A stretch of DNA of 64,000 nt, taken from assembly GCA_963665235.2 (NCBI GenBank), contig CAXXLX010000001.1, positions 128,001 to 192,000 of the forward strand. The letters run 5' to 3'. Shown piece after piece: positions 18,970-34,025 of the stretch (positions within the stretch are counted from its first letter, which is position 1; each line of letters starts with the position of its first letter). Position numbers and translations under genes: made by a program. This DNA comes from Candidatus Poribacteria bacterium (GTDB lineage Bacteria > Poribacteria > WGA-4E > WGA-3G). A model generated the notes under the pieces. That model ran no database searches. It had not been told where the DNA came from and was given only the letters and a program-made list of their open reading frames with translations.

Positions 18970-19560
18970 ATGAAACGAACACTGTATTGGGGACTAGCTA
19001 TCCTCATTTTACTACTCATAACCGCCGGTGTTTTCCTGCTGACACAGCGGAACACCGACACAAAACCGAACGTTGTTTTTGAACCGCCATCCGATAAAGT
19101 CATCCAACAGATTCGGGATGGCATTGCAGAGCGGAACGCACAGGACGTGGTCAAACCTCCACCTCCTGGCAAAACCTTCGAGGGGGGCGGACATTGGCAC
19201 GGCGACGTATGGCACGACGCGCCACATACGCCTTCTGATTTACAACCTATTCCATCGGTCGATGGGCCTGTAAAAGCAAACGCCGATTCGATGTCAGACC
19301 CTTCAACGAAATTAACACATTGGCTGCGTCAATATAAAAAATGGGCGCGTGAGTATGAGAAGGCGCATGATGAATGGGTGAAAGCAGTAGAGGCATCTAA
19401 TAACTATCTTAAAGGGAAATGGACTCCGGAGTATCTTACCAATCTGAGCGATACAGAAAAAGAGCAAGTCGCAGCGAAGATATTGGAATTACATGAAGCG
19501 TGTCTGACTGCCAACAACAAGTTAGATGTGCTATCCAAAGAGAGGCTATCGTTTAAATAA
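18970..19560 (+). CDS. Membrane-anchored hypothetical protein (GGHWHGDVWH motif, helical C-terminus)
   Basis: AGGAGG RBS, N-terminal TM segment, C-terminal half near-identical to 20820-21269. Confidence 0.8.
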   Translation: MKRTLYWGLAILILLLITAGVFLLTQRNTDTKPNVVFEPPSDKVIQQIRDGIAERNAQDVVKPPPPGKTFEGGGHWHGDVWHDAPHTPSDLQPIPSVDGPVKANADSMSDPSTKLTHWLRQYKKWAREYEKAHDEWVKAVEASNNYLKGKWTPEYLTNLSDTEKEQVAAKILELHEACLTANNKLDVLSKERLSFK

Positions 19561-19589
19561 TCTGCAACTATAAGAAAGGATGGTGGCTT

Positions 19590-20393
19590 ATGGAAAAAGC
19601 ACTTTTGATTTTCAGTATACTTTTCGGAATCATCGGTTTACAGGTATCGACCCAAGCCGTTGATTATGAAAACTTTGTATTTAAGGGAACGGAATGCTAT
19701 ACAGAAAGGCAGGATGAAGAACAAGCGGAGGCAGCGTATGAATCCGCTCGCCAGAAGGTTATGAAACTCATAGTAAAGCGAAAAACCTTACAGTTCAAGA
19801 TGGTATTCGGAGGGTTACGCGGCACCGGAAAAACGATGCAACAACTCCAACAAACAGAAGAGGATTTGGATGCTGCGGAACGGGACGCTCTTAATAAATA
19901 TTCTGATTGGCAGGATGCAGAGGAAAGATTGATAAACTGTATAGACAGTTTATTATGTGGGGGTGGCTGTGGCTCCAGGACAGATCATTTGTCACCCTCT
20001 TGTAGCACATGTGATGCTACAAATTTCTATTCTTGTCAGCACAGATGCCCTGGCATTCCAACCTGTGACAGATCTGGTTGTAATGCACAACTCGATTTTA
20101 ATGTGACTCGCGCATTACACACACAAGTTCGTTGCTCAGGTTGTAAGAATCTTTATTGGCGTTGTGATATGCATGCTGTGGAGATTCATCGCCCCCGTAC
20201 CTGCTTAAGGATAGTTAATGAGTATTCTTTGAGTTCTTCTGACAGATATATCTGCGGTGCGTCTTACCGAGACTGTATAAATTATCGATTATCCTGTGCA
20301 AGCTTCGCCGGCAGACACAACGATTTCGGTGCAGGAAATGGGGCTTGTCCTCTCTGCAATGGCCCTGGCTGCTCCGCGTGTGAGAACCCATAG
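19590..20393 (+). CDS. Secreted Cys-rich protein with N-terminal coiled coil
   Basis: Signal peptide ending TQA. 21 Cys counted, many in CxxC/CxxxC pairs with interspersed His. Confidence 0.8.
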   Translation: MEKALLIFSILFGIIGLQVSTQAVDYENFVFKGTECYTERQDEEQAEAAYESARQKVMKLIVKRKTLQFKMVFGGLRGTGKTMQQLQQTEEDLDAAERDALNKYSDWQDAEERLINCIDSLLCGGGCGSRTDHLSPSCSTCDATNFYSCQHRCPGIPTCDRSGCNAQLDFNVTRALHTQVRCSGCKNLYWRCDMHAVEIHRPRTCLRIVNEYSLSSSDRYICGASYRDCINYRLSCASFAGRHNDFGAGNGACPLCNGPGCSACENP

Positions 20394-20645
20394 TCATCCA
20401 CCATGGGCAGGTAACTCTCAAGTTACCTGCCTCTTCTTTTCATTTGTTCCCACTGCCGCCCTTGATAGCCCCTTCTGCTATATATCAAAAGAGATGCAGC
20501 GACGTGACAGAACACAGTCCCCGCAGGAGAAAGACCCTCCACTCTCTCAAGAGTGCCTGCTTACCTCTCTGATTCTGATAGGCGCAACCCTCTTCAATCC
20601 AATGTTTCCAAAACTCCGCAAAATTCGCGGAAGTTCCTTTTTTTT

Positions 20646-20674
20646 CTGACATTTTCTCGCGTTTTCTGCTATAA
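20646..20674 (+). promoter_or_regulatory. Sigma70-type promoter with extended -10
   Basis: CTGACA-17-TATAAT, with TG upstream of the -10. Confidence 0.55.
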
Positions 20675-20819
20675 TGAAAGCGTTACGATGAAACAATGCC
20701 CCTGTCACTATGGATACTCATAAACTTACATGACGACTGCGTTGTAAGGTATCCACTTTTTAAACATAAGGTGCTTTATCACTAAACCAACAGCCGGTCA
20801 AGTGGTAAGGAGAAGGAAA

Positions 20820-21269
20820 ATGAGAAAAAAGATGTTTAGAGGTTGGACTATTCTGATTTTTTTAGTAGGTATTGCTTGCGTTTTTCTGTTCACACGGCAG
20901 CACACCGAGACGGAACCAGAAGTTCTTACTCCCCCGGTGCCCCGCTCGGAGGTCATCCCACAGTCAAGCGATGGGCCTGTAAAAGCAAACGCCGATTCGA
21001 TGTCAGACCCTCCAGCGAAATTAGAGCATTGGCTGCGTCAATACAAAAAATGGGCGCGTGAATATGAGAAGGCGCATGATGAATGGGTGAAAGCAGTAGA
21101 GGCATCCAATAACTATCTTAAAGGGAAATGGACTCCGGAGTATCTTAACAGTCTGAGCGATACAGAAAAACAGCAAGTCGCAGCGAAGATATTGGAGTTG
21201 CATGAAACGTGTCTGACTACCAGCAAAAAGTTAGATGCGTTATCTGAAGAGAGGCCATCCTTCAAATAA
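20820..21269 (+). CDS. Membrane-anchored paralogue of 18970-19560
   Basis: Shares DGPVKANADSMSDP...LSxERxSFK but has a different N-terminus. ATG 20820 (GTG 20802 is an alternative). Confidence 0.8.
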   Translation: MRKKMFRGWTILIFLVGIACVFLFTRQHTETEPEVLTPPVPRSEVIPQSSDGPVKANADSMSDPPAKLEHWLRQYKKWAREYEKAHDEWVKAVEASNNYLKGKWTPEYLNSLSDTEKQQVAAKILELHETCLTTSKKLDALSEERPSFK

Positions 21270-22505: not shown

Positions 22506-23315
22506 TTAGACTGAAATAGCGTTAATTTTCTCTTGCAAAAACGCTGTGCAATAGGGCACTTGTGCTTCCGAAAGTCCGTGCAGAATTACCGCGCCCTCGT
22601 AGCCGCTCCGGTTAAGTAAACCGATGTACTGCTCGTAATCCAACAAGCCTGTGCCTGCGGCGAGGTGTCCCGCTTGACCGTCCCTGTCCAAATCTTTCGC
22701 GTGTGCCAGCACGATGTCTTCAGCAAGCAGGTCAAATGCCTCGTTAAGGATTTCGCGCATTTTTGGCAGCTCTCCCTTATGAAAGATATTCGCTCCATCC
22801 ATGACAATCTTCAGATAGGGGGATTGCATTTCGTCAAGTAGTCGCCGCGCTTTCTGCGCGGAATCGATGACGTTTGAGACCTCCGGTTCAAGCGCGAGCG
22901 TGATACCGTACTTTTCAGCTATCTGTAGTGCTTGTGCCATAGACTCAACCAGATCACGCCATGCGGATGCTGAGTTGTTATCTGGATGGGCACGCCACAT
23001 ATTGTGCGGGTCGCGAGAGCCGGTGCAGAGTGTAATAATCGATGTGCCGAGGGGCTCGCATTGCGCAGCGACGAACTGCAACATCTCTAAACCCGCATGA
23101 CGTTTGGCAACATCGGGGTCAATCATGTTGTATGTGCCTGATATTGCTGATATCGTTATCTGTCGTGCATCCAGCTCCTTGCGAATTTCTGAAGATGGAG
23201 AGGTAGAAGTAGACACATGATATTGCAAATAGTGGACCCCGTGCTTTATAACGGCATCGAGGCTTTCGGTGAGTGTGGGGCGGCGTATTGTGCCCTCCAT
23301 GAGTCCGACGTGCAT
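22506..23315 (-). CDS. Sugar phosphate isomerase/epimerase (xylose isomerase-like TIM barrel)
   Basis: LALEPE, VMDGAN, HAKD, AAGTGLLDY. Confidence 0.88.
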   Translation of the reverse strand: MHVGLMEGTIRRPTLTESLDAVIKHGVHYLQYHVSTSTSPSSEIRKELDARQITISAISGTYNMIDPDVAKRHAGLEMLQFVAAQCEPLGTSIITLCTGSRDPHNMWRAHPDNNSASAWRDLVESMAQALQIAEKYGITLALEPEVSNVIDSAQKARRLLDEMQSPYLKIVMDGANIFHKGELPKMREILNEAFDLLAEDIVLAHAKDLDRDGQAGHLAAGTGLLDYEQYIGLLNRSGYEGAVILHGLSEAQVPYCTAFLQEKINAISV

Positions 23316-23337: not shown

Positions 23338-24042
23338 TTATGAATCTTCTCGGTTAATTCGAGGTGCGTCAGTGGTGTTTTGCTCGGAATGGAAACGACA
23401 GATTGAATCTGCAAGGCGACTTCCCGCGCCAACTAACCGTGCTAAAACGCCAATCTGTTCCCGGCAAACTACGTTGTCAGTCGGTTCAGGATAATTGACT
23501 AGGTGATCAATTTCAGCCCAAACCTCCTCAAAAAGGGTTCTGACCTGAATTTCGCAAGAAACGGGCGAATCTTCTCTGGGCTTAATGACGTAGTGAACGC
23601 TGGTATACAAACTCTCCTTCACGTCAGGGTTCAAGCCTTGATTTTCAAAGAAACCGTGTGATTCCGGATCCCAAGTATAGGCTTTCGGTTCTTCATACAG
23701 CATCCAGTCTCGGCTATCCAATTTTTGGTTTATTGCCCGGTGGATATGTATGAATTGGGCCTGATATAGGTGAAGCACTCGAACCCCGGCGATGTCGGTT
23801 ATCCGGTCGAAAATATTTTCTGGCGTGATCGGGTCTTCAGTTGGCGATTTACGTTGTATTTTTTCGCGAAGGTGCTCCAAATCCTTCAGTCGACTTTTGA
23901 CCGAGTGAACGACTTGTGGCGATTGGGTTAGGTCCGGATGTGTCTCAAAAAAGCGAACTGTGTTTTCGCGGAAGAGATCTATATTGTGGTGTTCACTTTG
24001 CACTCGCGCTATAATAGCGTTCATACTTGCTTCATCAACCAT
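23338..24042 (-). CDS. RelA/SpoT-domain small alarmone synthetase-like protein
   Basis: SVKSRLKD..HLREK, ITDIAGVRV, YTSVHYVI, EIQVRTLFEEVWAEIDH. ATG 24042 follows GGAGG and overlaps the ParA stop. Confidence 0.9.
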   Translation of the reverse strand: MVDEASMNAIIARVQSEHHNIDLFRENTVRFFETHPDLTQSPQVVHSVKSRLKDLEHLREKIQRKSPTEDPITPENIFDRITDIAGVRVLHLYQAQFIHIHRAINQKLDSRDWMLYEEPKAYTWDPESHGFFENQGLNPDVKESLYTSVHYVIKPREDSPVSCEIQVRTLFEEVWAEIDHLVNYPEPTDNVVCREQIGVLARLVGAGSRLADSICRFHSEQNTTDAPRINREDS

Positions 24043-25147
24043 TATTGGCCTCCAATCGGTCAAGACGCGTTAAGAGCTCCTTGGCAAAGATGTGGAAACC
24101 TTTTTGAGTGTCTTCATATCTTTGGCTATTACCTGCAATAGTGCTCTTGTCACTTGCCTCTAGGTTTTTACAACTTGGGACTTTCCACATCGGTGTTCTG
24201 TATTTTTGAGACATATTCGGAAGGGTTGCGTAGGAGTGCATAATGGCCGTTCCACCAACGGGGTCTTCTAATTGTGTTTCAGTTAGGTGTTTCCTGTGGT
24301 CAGCATCAATATACTCCCGAATTGTAGCGGGAATCTGTTGAGCGTAGTTGTGATGTGCCCTGGATAAATTCCATTCCCCCGATCCGGAATATCTCCTAGC
24401 ATTGAAAATTGTGAACCCCAAAAAACTGACGAAATTCTTGGGGAAATGGGTTAACTTCGCATCGGAGAGTAGCGTAAAAATCGTATCAAAATCCCGTTTC
24501 CAACCTTTAAGGGATTTGCCGATATTCTCTATACCGTAAAGGGAAAACATATCTGGCATACACGGAATGAGAAACCCATCTACAGTGGATATGATGACTT
24601 TATTGAGTATTCCGAGACTTGGTGATGTATCGATCACAACATAGTCGTAGGCGTAATTTTCTGCGTAGGTTTTGAAAAAATTTCGGATTTGTGTGACAGT
24701 CCGGATTGCTAGCGGGTCTCCACCATAAACATCTGTCCATCGACTCGCGATTTTGTCTTCGTAAGTATGTATGGAGAGTCTGCCCGGAATCATTCCAAGG
24801 TTGTCGTGTAGAGATAGCGGTTTTGCAAAGGATTTCAGCGCGTCTGTTCCATCTTCGGTTGGTTTAAAAAGAAAGTGGATGGAACGGACATCACCGGCAA
24901 TAGCCTCAAATTCACCCTGAGATTTCTGTTCACGCGCTGCAGCAAAGTCATCTATAAATGCCTCTTCGGTCTGCCAAACGTTATGTAGTTCTTCCGGGGC
25001 TAAGCCAAATAGGGTTAGATTCGATTGCGGGTCTAAATCGAGAAGAAGGGTTTTATAGCCCAACTCGGCGAGGGCGTATCCAAGGTGGTAGGTCAAGGTT
25101 GTTTTGCCGACACCGCCTTTATTGTTGAATACAGCGATTGATTTCAT
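24035..25147 (-). CDS. ParA/Soj-family ATPase (long form, no parB)
   Basis: Deviant Walker A FNNKGGVGKTT, DLDPQSNLT, IDTSPSLG. AAGGAG RBS. Confidence 0.9.
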   Translation of the reverse strand: MKSIAVFNNKGGVGKTTLTYHLGYALAELGYKTLLLDLDPQSNLTLFGLAPEELHNVWQTEEAFIDDFAAAREQKSQGEFEAIAGDVRSIHFLFKPTEDGTDALKSFAKPLSLHDNLGMIPGRLSIHTYEDKIASRWTDVYGGDPLAIRTVTQIRNFFKTYAENYAYDYVVIDTSPSLGILNKVIISTVDGFLIPCMPDMFSLYGIENIGKSLKGWKRDFDTIFTLLSDAKLTHFPKNFVSFLGFTIFNARRYSGSGEWNLSRAHHNYAQQIPATIREYIDADHRKHLTETQLEDPVGGTAIMHSYATLPNMSQKYRTPMWKVPSCKNLEASDKSTIAGNSQRYEDTQKGFHIFAKELLTRLDRLEANNG

Positions 25148-25372
25148 GTTATATCTCCTTTATTTATGAACTTACCTTCGATTTTAGCACATTTGGTGGG
25201 TTTTGTCAAAGGGCAAAAAATCCGAAACACGGTTGCGTAAATCTATTGAATATGCCATAATATATACAGTCTATCATGAAATTCTAAATTTCACGCTAAT
25301 CGTCTTTTTATATGTTAACAACTTTTCGGCAGGGGTCGCCGGATTTCTGCTAAAAAACATGGAAGGAACACT

Positions 25373-26143
25373 ATGTCAAGAGTACCGATTGGGTTAGAGT
25401 TATATTCTGTTCGAAATGAGTTGGCAGCGGATGCCCGCGCTACGATAAAAGCGGTCGCGGAGATGGGATATGAAGGTGTTGAATTCGCCGGTCCCCCACA
25501 ACATTCGGCGCAAGAGTTAAAGGGTTATCTCGACGAGTTTGGTCTGGTCTGCTGCGGTTGGCACACGCCGTTCAATCTCGTCCAAGAAGACAGGCTTGCC
25601 GAAACGATTGAATTTAATAAGGTTTTGGAAAACCGTTATATCATCGTTCCGGGTATACCGGGGGAGCTGCGTCAGTCTCGTGCGGATTGGTTGAAGTTAG
25701 CGGATTTCTTCAATGGGGTTGCCGATGAACTCGCCGCACACGATATGGTGACCGGGTATCATAATCATCATATTGAATTTACCCCGCTGGATGGTGAACA
25801 GCCGTGGGATACCTTCTTCGGCAACACAAACGAAGGGGTTGTGATGCAGCTGGATATGGGCAATGCACTCAATGGGGGTGCCGAGCTTGTCGGTATTTTA
25901 GAGCGATACCCGGGCCGCGCGGGAACGGTCCATCTCAAACCTTATACCATATCGGACGCGGCTGGGCACAACGGGTTTCGTCCTATTATCGGTGAGGATA
26001 GCGTGCCATGGGCGGAGATTTTTCGAGTCTGTGAAACGACAGGTGGTACGAAATGGTATATTGTTGAATATGAGAGCGATGCCTTTCCGCCGCTTGAGGC
26101 CGTGGAACGTTGTTTAAAAGCACTAAAGGCGATGGGGAAGTAA
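25373..26143 (+). CDS. Sugar phosphate isomerase/epimerase
   Basis: GLELYSVR, MGYEGVEFAG, GYHNHHIEF, QLDMG, HLK, WYIVEYE. Confidence 0.9.
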   Translation: MSRVPIGLELYSVRNELAADARATIKAVAEMGYEGVEFAGPPQHSAQELKGYLDEFGLVCCGWHTPFNLVQEDRLAETIEFNKVLENRYIIVPGIPGELRQSRADWLKLADFFNGVADELAAHDMVTGYHNHHIEFTPLDGEQPWDTFFGNTNEGVVMQLDMGNALNGGAELVGILERYPGRAGTVHLKPYTISDAAGHNGFRPIIGEDSVPWAEIFRVCETTGGTKWYIVEYESDAFPPLEAVERCLKALKAMGK

Positions 26144-31454: not shown

Positions 31455-34025
31455 CTATTTCTGCCCGCTTACTTTGTTTAGTAATTCGATGAGATAGTTT
31501 GAAGGGATAGCGAAATTCAGATTCTGTCCGGTTGTTATTATTGACACTGCAACACCTATCACTTCACCCTTGCTGTTTAACACAGGACCACCGCTGCTGC
31601 CTTTGGAAATAGGTGCTGTAATCTGGATACGTTCACTACCAACCTGGAACTCGCGTACACCACTTACAATGCCATTTGAAAATGTTCCTTCTAAAAACCC
31701 TATTGGATTACCTGCTACGTAAACAGATTCACCTATTTGCACTTTGTCGCTTTTGCCAAGAGAAAGGGCAGGTGCACCAACATCCGAAACCCTAATAATT
31801 GCTAAATCTTGTCGCGAGTCCATGGCAACGATGCCTTCTATGCGATGTGTTCTATCCATCCCAACCCGCTTGACATATCCTCTGAGAACCCCTTCAACAA
31901 CGTGTAGATTAGTGGCAATTGTATCGCGCGTAACGAAAAATCCACTCCCAATATTCAGGGGCTGTCCATTTCGATCTTCCATAACGATGAGGACAGTAGA
32001 TGCTAATGCGATTTTGGCGATTTGCTGAGGAGTTTGTTGAACAACATTCCGGACGAGCACAAGTGGCTGCTGTGGAATCTGTGAGGCAAGGACGCGCGTA
32101 TCCCATAAAAGAATGGTTCCACCATAAGCAGTAGCAAAAGTTTTTCCATCTGGTGAATATCCCGGTGTGATGTTTCTTAAATGCTGTTTTAGAATGATTT
32201 TGCGTTTTCTCATGTCTGCATCCCAGAAATGTCCTTCGCCAATAGCACTTGCTGTTGCGATTGTATTTCCATCGGGAGAATACACAAGAGAACTATACCT
32301 TTTTAGAACATTTTTTTCTTTTCCAGTGTCAGCGTTCCATAAACGTACCTCGCCTTCGCCTGTGCCACTTGCTGTTATGATAGTATTTCCATCGGGAGAG
32401 TAGGCAACGAATGTGATATTTTTCGTATGTCCCTTTAAAGTATTTTTATGTTTTTCTGTGTGTGCATCCCATAAATATACTGCGTTCTGACTTGCAGACG
32501 CAATAGTATTTCCATCGGGAGAGTAGGCAACGAATGTGATACTTTCCGCATGTTGCAGCTCTCCATCCCTCCAATCGCCATTGGTATTTTGAAGCTTTCC
32601 TGTGTCTGTATCCCAAAGAAATACCTCGCTCCCAATTGCGGTAGCGATAGTTTTTCCATCGGGAGAATACGCTACAGAAGATATCCAATTTGTATCTCCT
32701 TTTAGAGTAGTTTCGTGTTGTTTTCCTGTGCCTACATCCCAGAAATGTACCTCGCTCCCAATTGCGGTAGCGATAGTTTTTCCATCGGGAGAATATGTAA
32801 GCGACTTGACAAAACCAAAGGAATCATAATCTTTAAAAAAATCTTTTTTGCGTGCACCTGTAACTGCATCCCACAAAATTACAATACCATCATATGAATG
32901 TCTAGCAAGCGGATTTTCAATTGCGGTAGCGATAGTTTTTCCATCAGGAGAATACACAACTAAATCAGAAATAGGCATATGTTCTTTTAACGTACCAGTG
33001 TGTCTTCCTGTTTCTGCATCCCATAAACGCACCTCGCTCTGGCTTGCGGTAGCGATAGTTTTTCCATCGGGAGAATACGCAATGGAATCGACATAACCCC
33101 ACAATCCATATAAGTGTCCTTCTAACGTGTTTTTGTTTTTTCTTGTGCTGGCGTTATGCAAATGTGCTCTGCTTCCACTTGCAACTGCAAGTGTAGTACC
33201 GTCCGGAGAATACACAATAGAATGAATCCAGTGTGTATACCCTTTTAGAGTAGCTTTGTGTTTTCCGGTGACAGTATCCCATAAACGTCCCTTGCGATCG
33301 GCTCCTCCAGTAGCGAGAGTTTTTCCATCAGGCGAATACGCAACAGAATAGATATCGTCTGTATGCCCTTTTAGAGTAGCTTTGTGTTTTCCGGTGACAG
33401 CATCCCATAAATGCGCCTCTGTCCCACCTGCAGTAGTAATAGTTTTTCCATCTGGTGAATACGCAATGGAATTAATCACGCCGTGATCGTCTTTTAGAGT
33501 GGTTTTGTGTTTTCCGGTGACAGCATCCCATAAATGCGCCTCTGTCCCACCTGCAGTAGTAATAGTTTTTCCATCTGGTGAATACGCAATGGAATTAATC
33601 AGAAAGAAATCATCCTTTGTAGCCGCTATGAGTCTCGTTTTATATTCTCCTGTGTTTGTATTCCATAGATGTACATCTGTCCAATTTGCAGCTGCGAGTG
33701 TCATTCCATCAGGTGAGTACGCAATAGAAATTGCAGACCCCACATCCTCTATAAGCAGATCAAGTTCTTCGCCTGTGTGAGCGTCGTAGATCCAGATACC
33801 AATGGAACTACTTACAGCAAGTCGACTGCCATCTGGAGAGTACGCGATATTACTGGTTATGGTCCCTTTACCGATGCGTGCTGTAGCACCTGCGGGTAAA
33901 CCCAATTGCGTATAATCTGATAGAGATACATTTGGCAAGAACAACATGGAAGCACAAAATAGGGTGATTAGAAACAAACACTTCATTTTCATACAATAAA
34001 ACTCCATCATACAATAAAACTCCAT
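31455..34025 (-). CDS. Secreted WD40-repeat protein with C-terminal trypsin-like (HtrA-type) serine protease
   Basis: Signal peptide, about 14 YSPDG..IATA..LWD repeats, catalytic triad TNLHV / DLAII / ISKGSSGGPV. Confidence 0.92.
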   Translation of the reverse strand: MEFYCMMEFYCMKMKCLFLITLFCASMLFLPNVSLSDYTQLGLPAGATARIGKGTITSNIAYSPDGSRLAVSSSIGIWIYDAHTGEELDLLIEDVGSAISIAYSPDGMTLAAANWTDVHLWNTNTGEYKTRLIAATKDDFFLINSIAYSPDGKTITTAGGTEAHLWDAVTGKHKTTLKDDHGVINSIAYSPDGKTITTAGGTEAHLWDAVTGKHKATLKGHTDDIYSVAYSPDGKTLATGGADRKGRLWDTVTGKHKATLKGYTHWIHSIVYSPDGTTLAVASGSRAHLHNASTRKNKNTLEGHLYGLWGYVDSIAYSPDGKTIATASQSEVRLWDAETGRHTGTLKEHMPISDLVVYSPDGKTIATAIENPLARHSYDGIVILWDAVTGARKKDFFKDYDSFGFVKSLTYSPDGKTIATAIGSEVHFWDVGTGKQHETTLKGDTNWISSVAYSPDGKTIATAIGSEVFLWDTDTGKLQNTNGDWRDGELQHAESITFVAYSPDGNTIASASQNAVYLWDAHTEKHKNTLKGHTKNITFVAYSPDGNTIITASGTGEGEVRLWNADTGKEKNVLKRYSSLVYSPDGNTIATASAIGEGHFWDADMRKRKIILKQHLRNITPGYSPDGKTFATAYGGTILLWDTRVLASQIPQQPLVLVRNVVQQTPQQIAKIALASTVLIVMEDRNGQPLNIGSGFFVTRDTIATNLHVVEGVLRGYVKRVGMDRTHRIEGIVAMDSRQDLAIIRVSDVGAPALSLGKSDKVQIGESVYVAGNPIGFLEGTFSNGIVSGVREFQVGSERIQITAPISKGSSGGPVLNSKGEVIGVAVSIITTGQNLNFAIPSNYLIELLNKVSGQK

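Follow-up and report, generated by a model that had tools for sequence, protein, structure and literature searches.

A ParA-like ATPase and a small alarmone synthetase form a conserved, mobile gene pair that is probably a toxin-type defence module

Introduction

Alarmone synthetases are known to act as toxins or effectors beside a partner that controls them, and their use as weapons has become a recent theme with toxSAS, CapRel, Tas1 and PANGU. Here we describe a pair of overlapping genes for a ParA-like ATPase and a single-domain RelA/SpoT small alarmone synthetase (SAS) from a Candidatus Poribacteria bacterium, located in a stretch of 64,000 nucleotides (nt) of contig CAXXLX010000001.1 (assembly GCA_963665235.2, positions 128,001 to 192,000), which is called the window below. 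It turned out that the pair is a conserved, self-contained two-gene module that moves horizontally. We regard it as probably a toxin-type defence module, since it travels as a unit across phyla and sits in anti-phage spots of prophages.

The toxSAS are the first group of systems to be compared. As far as the available part of Jimmy et al. (2020; PMC7229694) goes, they are likewise single-domain RelA/SpoT synthetases encoded in conserved, overlapping two-gene operons, and they share horizontal spread and prophage occurrence with our pair. The two differ in the partner, which is a ParA-like ATPase of 370 amino acids (aa) in the window and none of the six antitoxins described in that part of the paper. 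They also differ in the enzyme, because the window synthetase is unlike the five validated toxSAS (FaRel, FaRel2, PhRel, PhRel2 and CapRel), being “pRel”-like when compared by eye and nearer to RelP/RelQ than to CapRel.

PANGU type I, which combines the YejK-like nucleoid protein Pag1A with the GRel synthetase Pag1B (bioRxiv 10.64898/2026.04.06.716658), is similar in having two genes, one for a protein of chromosome-associated type and one for an alarmone synthetase effector. In the accessible part of that preprint, the partner activates the effector instead of neutralising it, which gives a precedent for a sensor of DNA state. However, the partner in the window is a ParA-like P-loop ATPase and not a YejK-like protein, with no other family recognised by Pfam, and the synthetase (234 aa, one Pfam domain) is without the separate acidic C-terminal domain reported for PANGU.

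Two further records are close to the pair. Anantharaman et al. (2013; PMC3710099) predicted a dyad of a ParA/Soj-like protein and a HEPN protein (MAE_18760 family) as a toxin-antitoxin (TA) system, in which a ParA/Soj-like ATPase is also coupled to a toxin-type gene; a HEPN-like partner occurs in 2 of our 80 ATPase loci. That dyad is a prediction only, and the available text speaks of no RelA/SpoT partner. In the catalogue of Rousset et al. (2022; PMC9122126), a row of Table S5B, “ParA/AAA_31| RelA_SpoT”, lists system 110 with 29 occurrences in the P2 prophage hotspot; it is an unnamed catalogue row only, and it belongs to the same family as the window pair. Thus the pairing, which an earlier reading of the window from the sequence alone (the sequence-only reading) had taken to be undescribed, is already on record, at least in the portion of the tables available. 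Besides, a literature search for alarmone synthetase or RelA_SpoT together with ParA-like or AAA_31 returned no paper on the pairing, although the spelling “RelA/SpoT” may escape such a search, and searches for an alarmone and ParA defence system or a SIR2 and ParA anti-phage dyad returned no relevant paper by title or abstract. The class of the ATPase partner, the strict pairing, the breadth across domains of life and the scaffold shared with SIR2 and HEPN effectors are undescribed in the searchable literature.

Results

Anatomy of the gene pair

The features of the locus are summarized in Table 1. The coordinates confirm what the sequence-only reading had described, namely that the ATPase gene overlaps a single-domain synthetase gene by 8 nt and carries a GGAGG within its 3' end. 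In the list of open reading frames (ORFs), the synthetase is given as 23338-24063(-), 241 aa, starting with TTG at 24063. The likely true start is the ATG at 24042. The resulting protein equals entry P0003 of the protein collection (234 aa, 100% identity), the ATG lies in the overlap with the ATPase stop, ATGGTTGA, and GGAGG stands 6 nt before it, as read directly from the sequence. The same tight junction between ATPase and synthetase is found in homologous loci.

Table 1. Features of the ATPase-synthetase locus (positions of the window)
Feature	Position	Strand	Remarks
Whole inserted segment	23316..25372	.	flanked by the TIM-barrel genes 22506-23315 and 25373-26143, which are divergent
Single-domain RelA/SpoT small alarmone synthetase gene	23338-24042	minus	234 aa from ATG 24042
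ParA-like ATPase gene	24035-25147	minus	370 aa from ATG
Gene overlap ATGGTTGA	24035..24042	minus	8 nt, ATPase stop/synthetase start, read from sequence
Promoter-like site	25181..25209	minus	TTGACA, 17 nt, TAAAAT, TG preceding second hexamer

The promoter-like site lies about 34 nt 5' of the ATPase ATG; it was the top one of 6 scanned sites and agrees with 11 of 12 consensus positions, which is a consensus match only. The window copy of the pair looks intact and has this promoter-like site of its own. No terminator-like site was found in the scan after the synthetase gene, and the TIM-barrel gene 22506-23315(-) starts 22 nt past the synthetase stop. The promoter-like site of the cassette may now drive transcription of this gene, since read-through is possible with no terminator found and such a short gap.

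No evaluable synthetase locus lacks the ATPase

Searching one genome per species with an alignment of the ATPase yielded 360 relatives, of which the 80 best loci were analysed. The synthetase follows the ATPase directly and intact in 67 of the 80 loci: 63 gave a single clean match, in 3 the match merely overran the natural stop, and one, from Gracilibacteria, is intact under genetic code table 25 with TGA as glycine. For the rest, the synthetase is broken in 4 loci (L029, L047, L074 and L089), an unrelated 260-aa partner takes its place in 2, no partner gene was detected in 4, and a contig edge ends the locus in 3. The 80 loci are distributed over at least 14 phyla including archaea. The bacterial hosts belong to Poribacteria, Desulfobacterota, Acidobacteriota, Alpha-, Beta- and Gammaproteobacteria, Chloroflexota, Bacillota, Bacteroidota, Elusimicrobia, Nitrospirota, Campylobacterales, Gracilibacteria and Cyanobacteria, and the archaeal ones to Methanothrix, Methanobacterium and Altiarchaeales.

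The reverse search was seeded with the synthetase and comprised 112 loci (80 kept of 513 metagenome relatives, and 32 IMG/VR contigs). A full ATPase gene lies directly upstream in 94 of them. In 11 loci the ATPase is cut by the contig end, in 4 it is partial (3 at contig ends, plus the ambiguous case L139), and the 3 loci with no ATPase match all have less than 350 nt of upstream sequence, so that among the 112 loci there is no evaluable case of a synthetase lacking the ATPase. The neighbourhood check proposed in the sequence-only reading therefore found a conserved pair from both sides. In the two seeded searches taken together, the synthetase was never seen alone, whereas the ATPase does occur where its partner is decayed, replaced or missing.

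When all ORFs of the 80 loci were clustered, no recurrent flanking gene besides the pair was found outside Poribacteria. Pairwise identities of the ATPases and of the synthetases correlate (r = 0.85; 0.66 for pairs below 70% identity; shuffled maximum 0.12), which shows co-inheritance and nothing further, because related sequences are not independent.

Several individual loci deserve mention. The Gracilibacteria pair (L081:6001-7821) is open solely under table 25, with 11 and 6 TGA codons read as glycine in its two genes, and thus the cassette has been resident long enough for recoding. In two Desulfobacterota genomes (L034 and L036), the pair is located between obg-proB and proA and splits this housekeeping run. 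A homologous protein of about 1375 aa flanks the pair in Paenibacillus (L060:1709-5848) and in Cytophagales (L067:1330-5454); it shows at most HTH_3 in Pfam and is the sole large neighbour common across phyla. The cyanobacterial ATPases L040, L042 and L095 (the last on Nostoc plasmid pNFSY02) are solitary, with no synthetase match or annotation beside them, and adjoin a type I restriction-modification (RM) system, a PIN gene, or an integrase and ParDE.

The pair is an insert in the Poribacteria genome

The surroundings of the pair in the window consist of xylose-isomerase-like TIM-barrel and GFO/IDH/MocA oxidoreductase genes according to Pfam. Of 61 genomes of the family, 57 have an orthologue of the TIM-barrel gene 22506-23315. 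Twenty-nine related loci were examined, and in 7 of them the two flanking TIM-barrel genes have divergent orthologues that lie side by side, separated by an empty gap of 178-588 nt, whereas the gap in the window measures 2057 nt and contains the pair. Since the flanking genes are adjacent without the pair in these loci, the pair is an insert of about 2 kb at this site, and both edges of the window spacer align with the empty sites. This bears out the earlier suggestion of a cassette inserted among sugar genes. The G+C content of the insert is 0.43-0.45 versus about 0.50 in the flanks, and a search for terminal repeats or att-like sites around it gave just short matches of the chance type. Three of the seven genomes with an empty site (G061, G066 and G026) have the pair elsewhere in the chromosome.

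In the sample of the phylum, 13 of 101 genomes contain the synthetase; the ATPase is beside it in 12 of the 13, and the remaining one has a truncated synthetase remnant alone. The genome of the window also encodes a separate long RelA/SpoT homologue (RSH; a 728-aa ORF), so the synthetase of the cassette is an extra one. The pair is accessory and mobile.

Prophage hotspots and defence context

PHROG annotation was made for 12 of the 32 viral (IMG/VR) loci (90 proteins). In the P2-like prophages L178, L181, L189 and L204, the pair lies between a gpA-type replication nickase and portal/terminase genes, while in L194 and L198, also P2-like, its neighbours are baseplate genes on one side and tail-completion or lysis genes on the other. 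It adjoins CI-like repressors in L191 and L201, and in L197 it is part of an inovirus-like element. Among 5,426 complete E. coli genomes, 7 carry the pair, and a DNA search set for distant matches, meant to reveal diverged ATPase genes, returned the same 7 genomes alone. In the E. coli locus L209, which belongs to a P2-like prophage, the pair stands between the genes for the replication endonuclease and the portal protein; its proteins are 52% and 53% identical to those of the window.

The gpA-gpQ locus of P2-like prophages is described as a hotspot of anti-phage systems in the part of Rousset et al. (2022) at hand. Homologues of the pair, not the window copy itself, occupy this variable locus in L209, L178, L181, L189 and L204, and the E. 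coli locus that bears the accessions of system 110 is of the same family as the window pair. A term search of Table S2 of that paper (tested systems), in the partial tables available, gave no entry with AAA_31, CbiA, ParA or RelA_SpoT. The E. coli pair is accompanied by an opposite-strand “ComF family protein” gene and a hypothetical one (L209:5902-7043; no Pfam match at E up to 0.001), and the available part of Table S5A of Rousset et al. (2022; PMC9122126) has the same arrangement beside the pair. The single match in GenBank phage records was rejected as a conventional ParA, with 34.5% identity across residues 2-221.

Outside the prophages, an RM, TA, defence-associated or mobile-element gene stands within two ORFs on either side of the pair in 21 of 57 non-Poribacteria loci, a count which is suggestive only, because it has no background control. 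For instance, a type I RM operon surrounds the pair in L057, and the pair adjoins KwaB in L052, an Mrr-type nuclease (Mrr_cat) in L061, AAA_21 and DUF4276 in L041 and ParE in L045; the mobile-element-type neighbours include transposases, resolvases and TraC. PADLOC 2.0.0 has no model for the pair. The contexts, together with the exchangeable partners described below, point to a TA or defence role. The proposal of a new TA or defence module is partly supported; the pairing itself is not new, as it stands in the accessible Table S5B.

Other effectors coupled to relatives of the ATPase

In Parabeggiatoa and Marithrix (Beggiatoaceae), an ATPase about 50% identical to that of the window is coupled to the unrelated 260-aa protein (L077:7103-7888 and L092:5010-5792). 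This partner, which has an R-x4-H motif, is not matched by Pfam and does not resemble the synthetase; the Atlas clusters closest to it bear the name RiboL-PSP-HEPN (score 0.96), which is a lead and not a test.

Scanning viral contigs with the ATPase alignment revealed a second tier of relatives, which are 26-33% identical and match over the full length (for one of them, hhalign gives 99.9% over positions 5-355 of 357). Their overlapping downstream gene is SIR2_2 in 9 of 9 scanned partners of 282-300 aa, all in predicted prophages (L268, L272, L273, L275, L276, L279, L281, L284 and L286), while the partner in L282 is HEPN_RiboL-PSP. In PADLOC, the SIR2 partners show likeness to the SIR2 portions of ThsA, LmuA and Dsr1, and the second-tier ATPases match no model of PADLOC 2.0.0 beyond the P-loop. 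ParA-like ATPase and SIR2 together look like an uncatalogued two-gene system.

Some candidates were not counted as effectors. In L243 (4001-7290), the gene that directly follows a distant ATPase relative encodes a full-length BREX PglZ (771 aa, PADLOC 1.9e-281), and with such a neighbour the ATPase could just be part of a BREX locus. The downstream gene in L263 and L264 is a terminase small subunit. The 332-aa relatives with a 95-aa ORF (L247-L257) were left out as well and may be true partition systems.

The ParA-like ATPase

The ATPase is assigned to the ParA/MinD class by Pfam (AAA_31, 3.3e-30; CbiA, 3.2e-16). It has a deviant Walker A motif (KGGVGKT), a Walker B motif and a family-specific C-terminal extension (about residues 215-370). 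In 53 homologues, K10, G11-G14, K15, T17, D37, D39 and D173 are invariant, so that both Walker A lysines, the DxD motif and Walker B are kept, and many residues of the extension are invariant too. The AlphaFold 2 model has a predicted local distance difference test (pLDDT) value of 93. Its best fold match is PDB 3pg5 (E 2e-14), followed by Soj/ParA, McdA, BcsQ and MinD, and 3pg5 also ranks first in the profile comparison (E 2.5e-37 across positions 1-339, C-terminal extension included). This entry is DIP2308 of Corynebacterium diphtheriae, a structural genomics “Uncharacterized protein” that is 22-24% identical to the ATPase. The C-terminal 156 residues alone matched just 80 representatives among 1.84 billion sequences. 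Where this part matched, it was always at the C-terminal end of proteins of about 356-397 aa, with many other matches being fragments, and the 80 representatives include no convincing fusion that carries it.

The ParA/Soj fold and the deviant Walker A motif could suggest DNA partition or cargo positioning, with the synthetase replacing ParB or an adaptor. We find this barely credible. A Pfam scan of the neighbouring genes found no parB-like gene near the pair, as the sequence-only reading had noted; the downstream gene is the synthetase, which appears from its motifs to be an enzyme with an intact active site, and there is no centromere-like repeat array. Moreover, relatives of the ATPase occur in just 2 of 72,556 plasmid records, one being the solitary ATPase on the Nostoc plasmid, with no synthetase annotated beside it, and the other lying on an unannotated megaplasmid.

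Predicted complex of the two proteins

In the complex prediction, which the sequence-only reading had proposed as a check, the ATPase and the synthetase reach a score of 0.50, versus 0.00 for the best control, with a pLDDT of 84 for the partner and runs that agree in 100% of contacts. In the calibration of the tool, the mark was reached by 116 out of 157 solved pairs but by only 2 out of 215 mismatched ones; at scores up to 0.60 there are just 18 of the passing solved pairs, and both passing mismatches fall there. The result lends weak support to binding between the two proteins.

Such binding would also suit a plain addiction TA system, in which the ATPase, as antitoxin, neutralises a constitutively toxic synthetase and stabilises a prophage or island, with no anti-phage role. 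The antitoxin-like gene comes first and the genes overlap; the synthetase was never seen without the ATPase, while the ATPase persists beside the four broken synthetases. An ATPase acting as antitoxin was postulated for the ParA/Soj-like and HEPN dyad in the available text of Anantharaman et al. (2013; PMC3710099). However, an ATPase of this size with invariant Walker A and B motifs would be an elaborate antitoxin, and the P2 hotspots and the relatives paired with SIR2 fit sensor-effector defence at least equally. We rate pure addiction as unlikely, bearing in mind that TA and defence roles are not mutually exclusive.

The synthetase

RelA_SpoT (PF04607) is the only Pfam domain of the synthetase (3.7e-18; 66.3 bits versus a cut-off of 27 for the 241-aa ORF). 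Pfam finds no hydrolase or other regulatory domain, again in line with the sequence-only reading, and with a RelA_SpoT domain above the cut-off and no HD hydrolase domain, the protein falls within the definition of an SAS. RxK, DxxGxR, YxxxH and EIQxRT are the catalytic motifs of RSH enzymes, and all of them are kept here. They appear as SRLKD, TDIAGVR, YTSVHY and CEIQVRT, with R51, K53, D83, R88, Y146, E164, Q166 and R168 invariant in 50 homologues and H150 nearly so, so the motifs that the sequence-only reading had named are all present. The 50 homologues also share a family-specific TWDPES motif. The AlphaFold 2 model has a pLDDT of 94.

A phmmer search of the synthetase against PDB sequences (E up to 1) returned RelP-, RelQ- and YwaC-type chains alone. 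By fold, an exported SAS is more distant than RelP/RelQ, as CapRel is. From the phmmer search and the weaker fold match of CapRel, the synthetase is not assignable to FaRel, FaRel2, PhRel, PhRel2 or CapRel. When the family was compared by eye with the “pRel” rows of the trimmed alignment of Jimmy et al. (2020), in the part available, the motifs HS.KSRLKD..HL, TDLAGVR.LHL, YTSVHY and CEIQVRTLFEEIWGE were common to both, and on this likeness the synthetase is a candidate member of the PRel subfamily of SAS. A placement through organism names in the supplements of that paper gave no matches, and the ParA family proteins listed in the accessible supplements are other loci that adjoin replication-initiation proteins. 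A literature search for PRel and alarmone found no paper on the subfamily.

The synthetase is mildly acidic (median isoelectric point 6.1), whereas tRNA-modifying toxSAS are generally basic. By this analogy, a nucleotide rather than a tRNA may be its substrate, though the pointer is a weak one.

Other features of the window

Two further observations concern genes away from the pair. The gene at 31455-34025(-) specifies a product of 856 aa that combines many WD40 repeats with a trypsin-like peptidase domain at its C-terminus. At 18970-21269(+), there are three successive ORFs of 196, 267 and 155 aa, which are unmatched in Pfam, NCBIfam and PADLOC.

Discussion

We read the pair as a mobile conflict module of the abortive-infection or TA type, in which the ATPase would control a toxic synthetase, and consider this reading, drawn from sequence comparison, somewhat better than an even bet. 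For toxicity, direct control, trigger and product, we infer the following course. The two genes would be co-transcribed from their own promoter and translationally coupled. The ParA-like ATPase would bind the synthetase and keep it inactive, with the ATP-dependent dimer cycle of the ATPase, and possibly binding to nucleoid DNA, as the switch; DNA binding is assumed here by analogy with the ParA family. A disturbance such as phage infection would free or activate the synthetase, which would then spend ATP to pyrophosphorylate a nucleotide, yielding (p)ppGpp or (pp)pApp. As ATP and GTP are drained, growth would stop. Sensing of foreign DNA or of nucleotide state by the ATPase, as put forward in the sequence-only reading, would likewise be conjectural.

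Several observations weigh against a conflict module. Both proteins are unusually conserved for conflict genes, with about 50-55% identity between bacteria and archaea. The nearest relatives of the synthetase by sequence (phmmer 1e-6) and by fold (Foldseek 1e-10) are the non-toxic RelP and RelQ, while CapRel is a weaker fold match (3e-7) with no sequence match. In the window, the neighbours of the pair are genes of sugar-metabolism type and there is no defence island; many flanks elsewhere are housekeeping genes too, and of the 57 loci counted with no background control, just 21 have a neighbour of defence, TA or mobile-element type, the other 36 having housekeeping or unknown genes. The “viral” contigs of IMG/VR are predictions, and GenBank phage records contain no member of the ATPase family. 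Finally, the PADLOC matches of the pair are weak or partial (PDC-M28B, 6.9e-6 over the P-loop; PDC-S33, 4.4e-6), and the E. coli pair likewise gets weak partial matches only.

Part of this evidence would suit an accessory physiological signalling pair, in which a non-toxic (p)ppGpp synthetase like RelP or RelQ is tuned by the ATPase through ATP/ADP, DNA state or the cell cycle. RelP and RelQ being the nearest solved relatives, the strong purifying selection on both proteins and the many housekeeping flanks, for example obg-proB/proA in the two Desulfobacterota loci, all speak for it. On the other side, the pair is patchy in the phylum with decayed copies, a long RSH is already encoded in the genome, the locations of the pair include prophage cargo sites, and ATPase relatives have SIR2 and HEPN effectors, which are non-signalling enzymes, as their coupled partners. 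We therefore regard a signalling role as improbable and keep the conflict module, with the ATPase controlling the synthetase, as the preferred interpretation.

A wider reading can be put forward, tentatively and with more doubt than belief. The ATPase with its C-terminal extension might be the sensor shared by a large, unnamed bacterial and archaeal superfamily of abortive-infection systems with two genes each, an ATP-dependent and perhaps nucleoid-bound switch with a swappable effector, which could be a PRel synthetase, a SIR2 NADase or a HEPN RNase. If true, this would parallel the sensing by a nucleoid protein in PANGU, with a partition-type ATPase repurposed for immunity.

In conclusion, the two genes are a mobile insert in this genome of Poribacteria and not part of the surrounding sugar-catabolism cluster. 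Across at least 14 phyla including archaea, they tie a subfamily of SAS, with no exception seen, to a partition-type ATPase. If the pair is a defence system, it would represent a new class of sensor and would explain a recurrent cargo of the P2 prophage hotspot.

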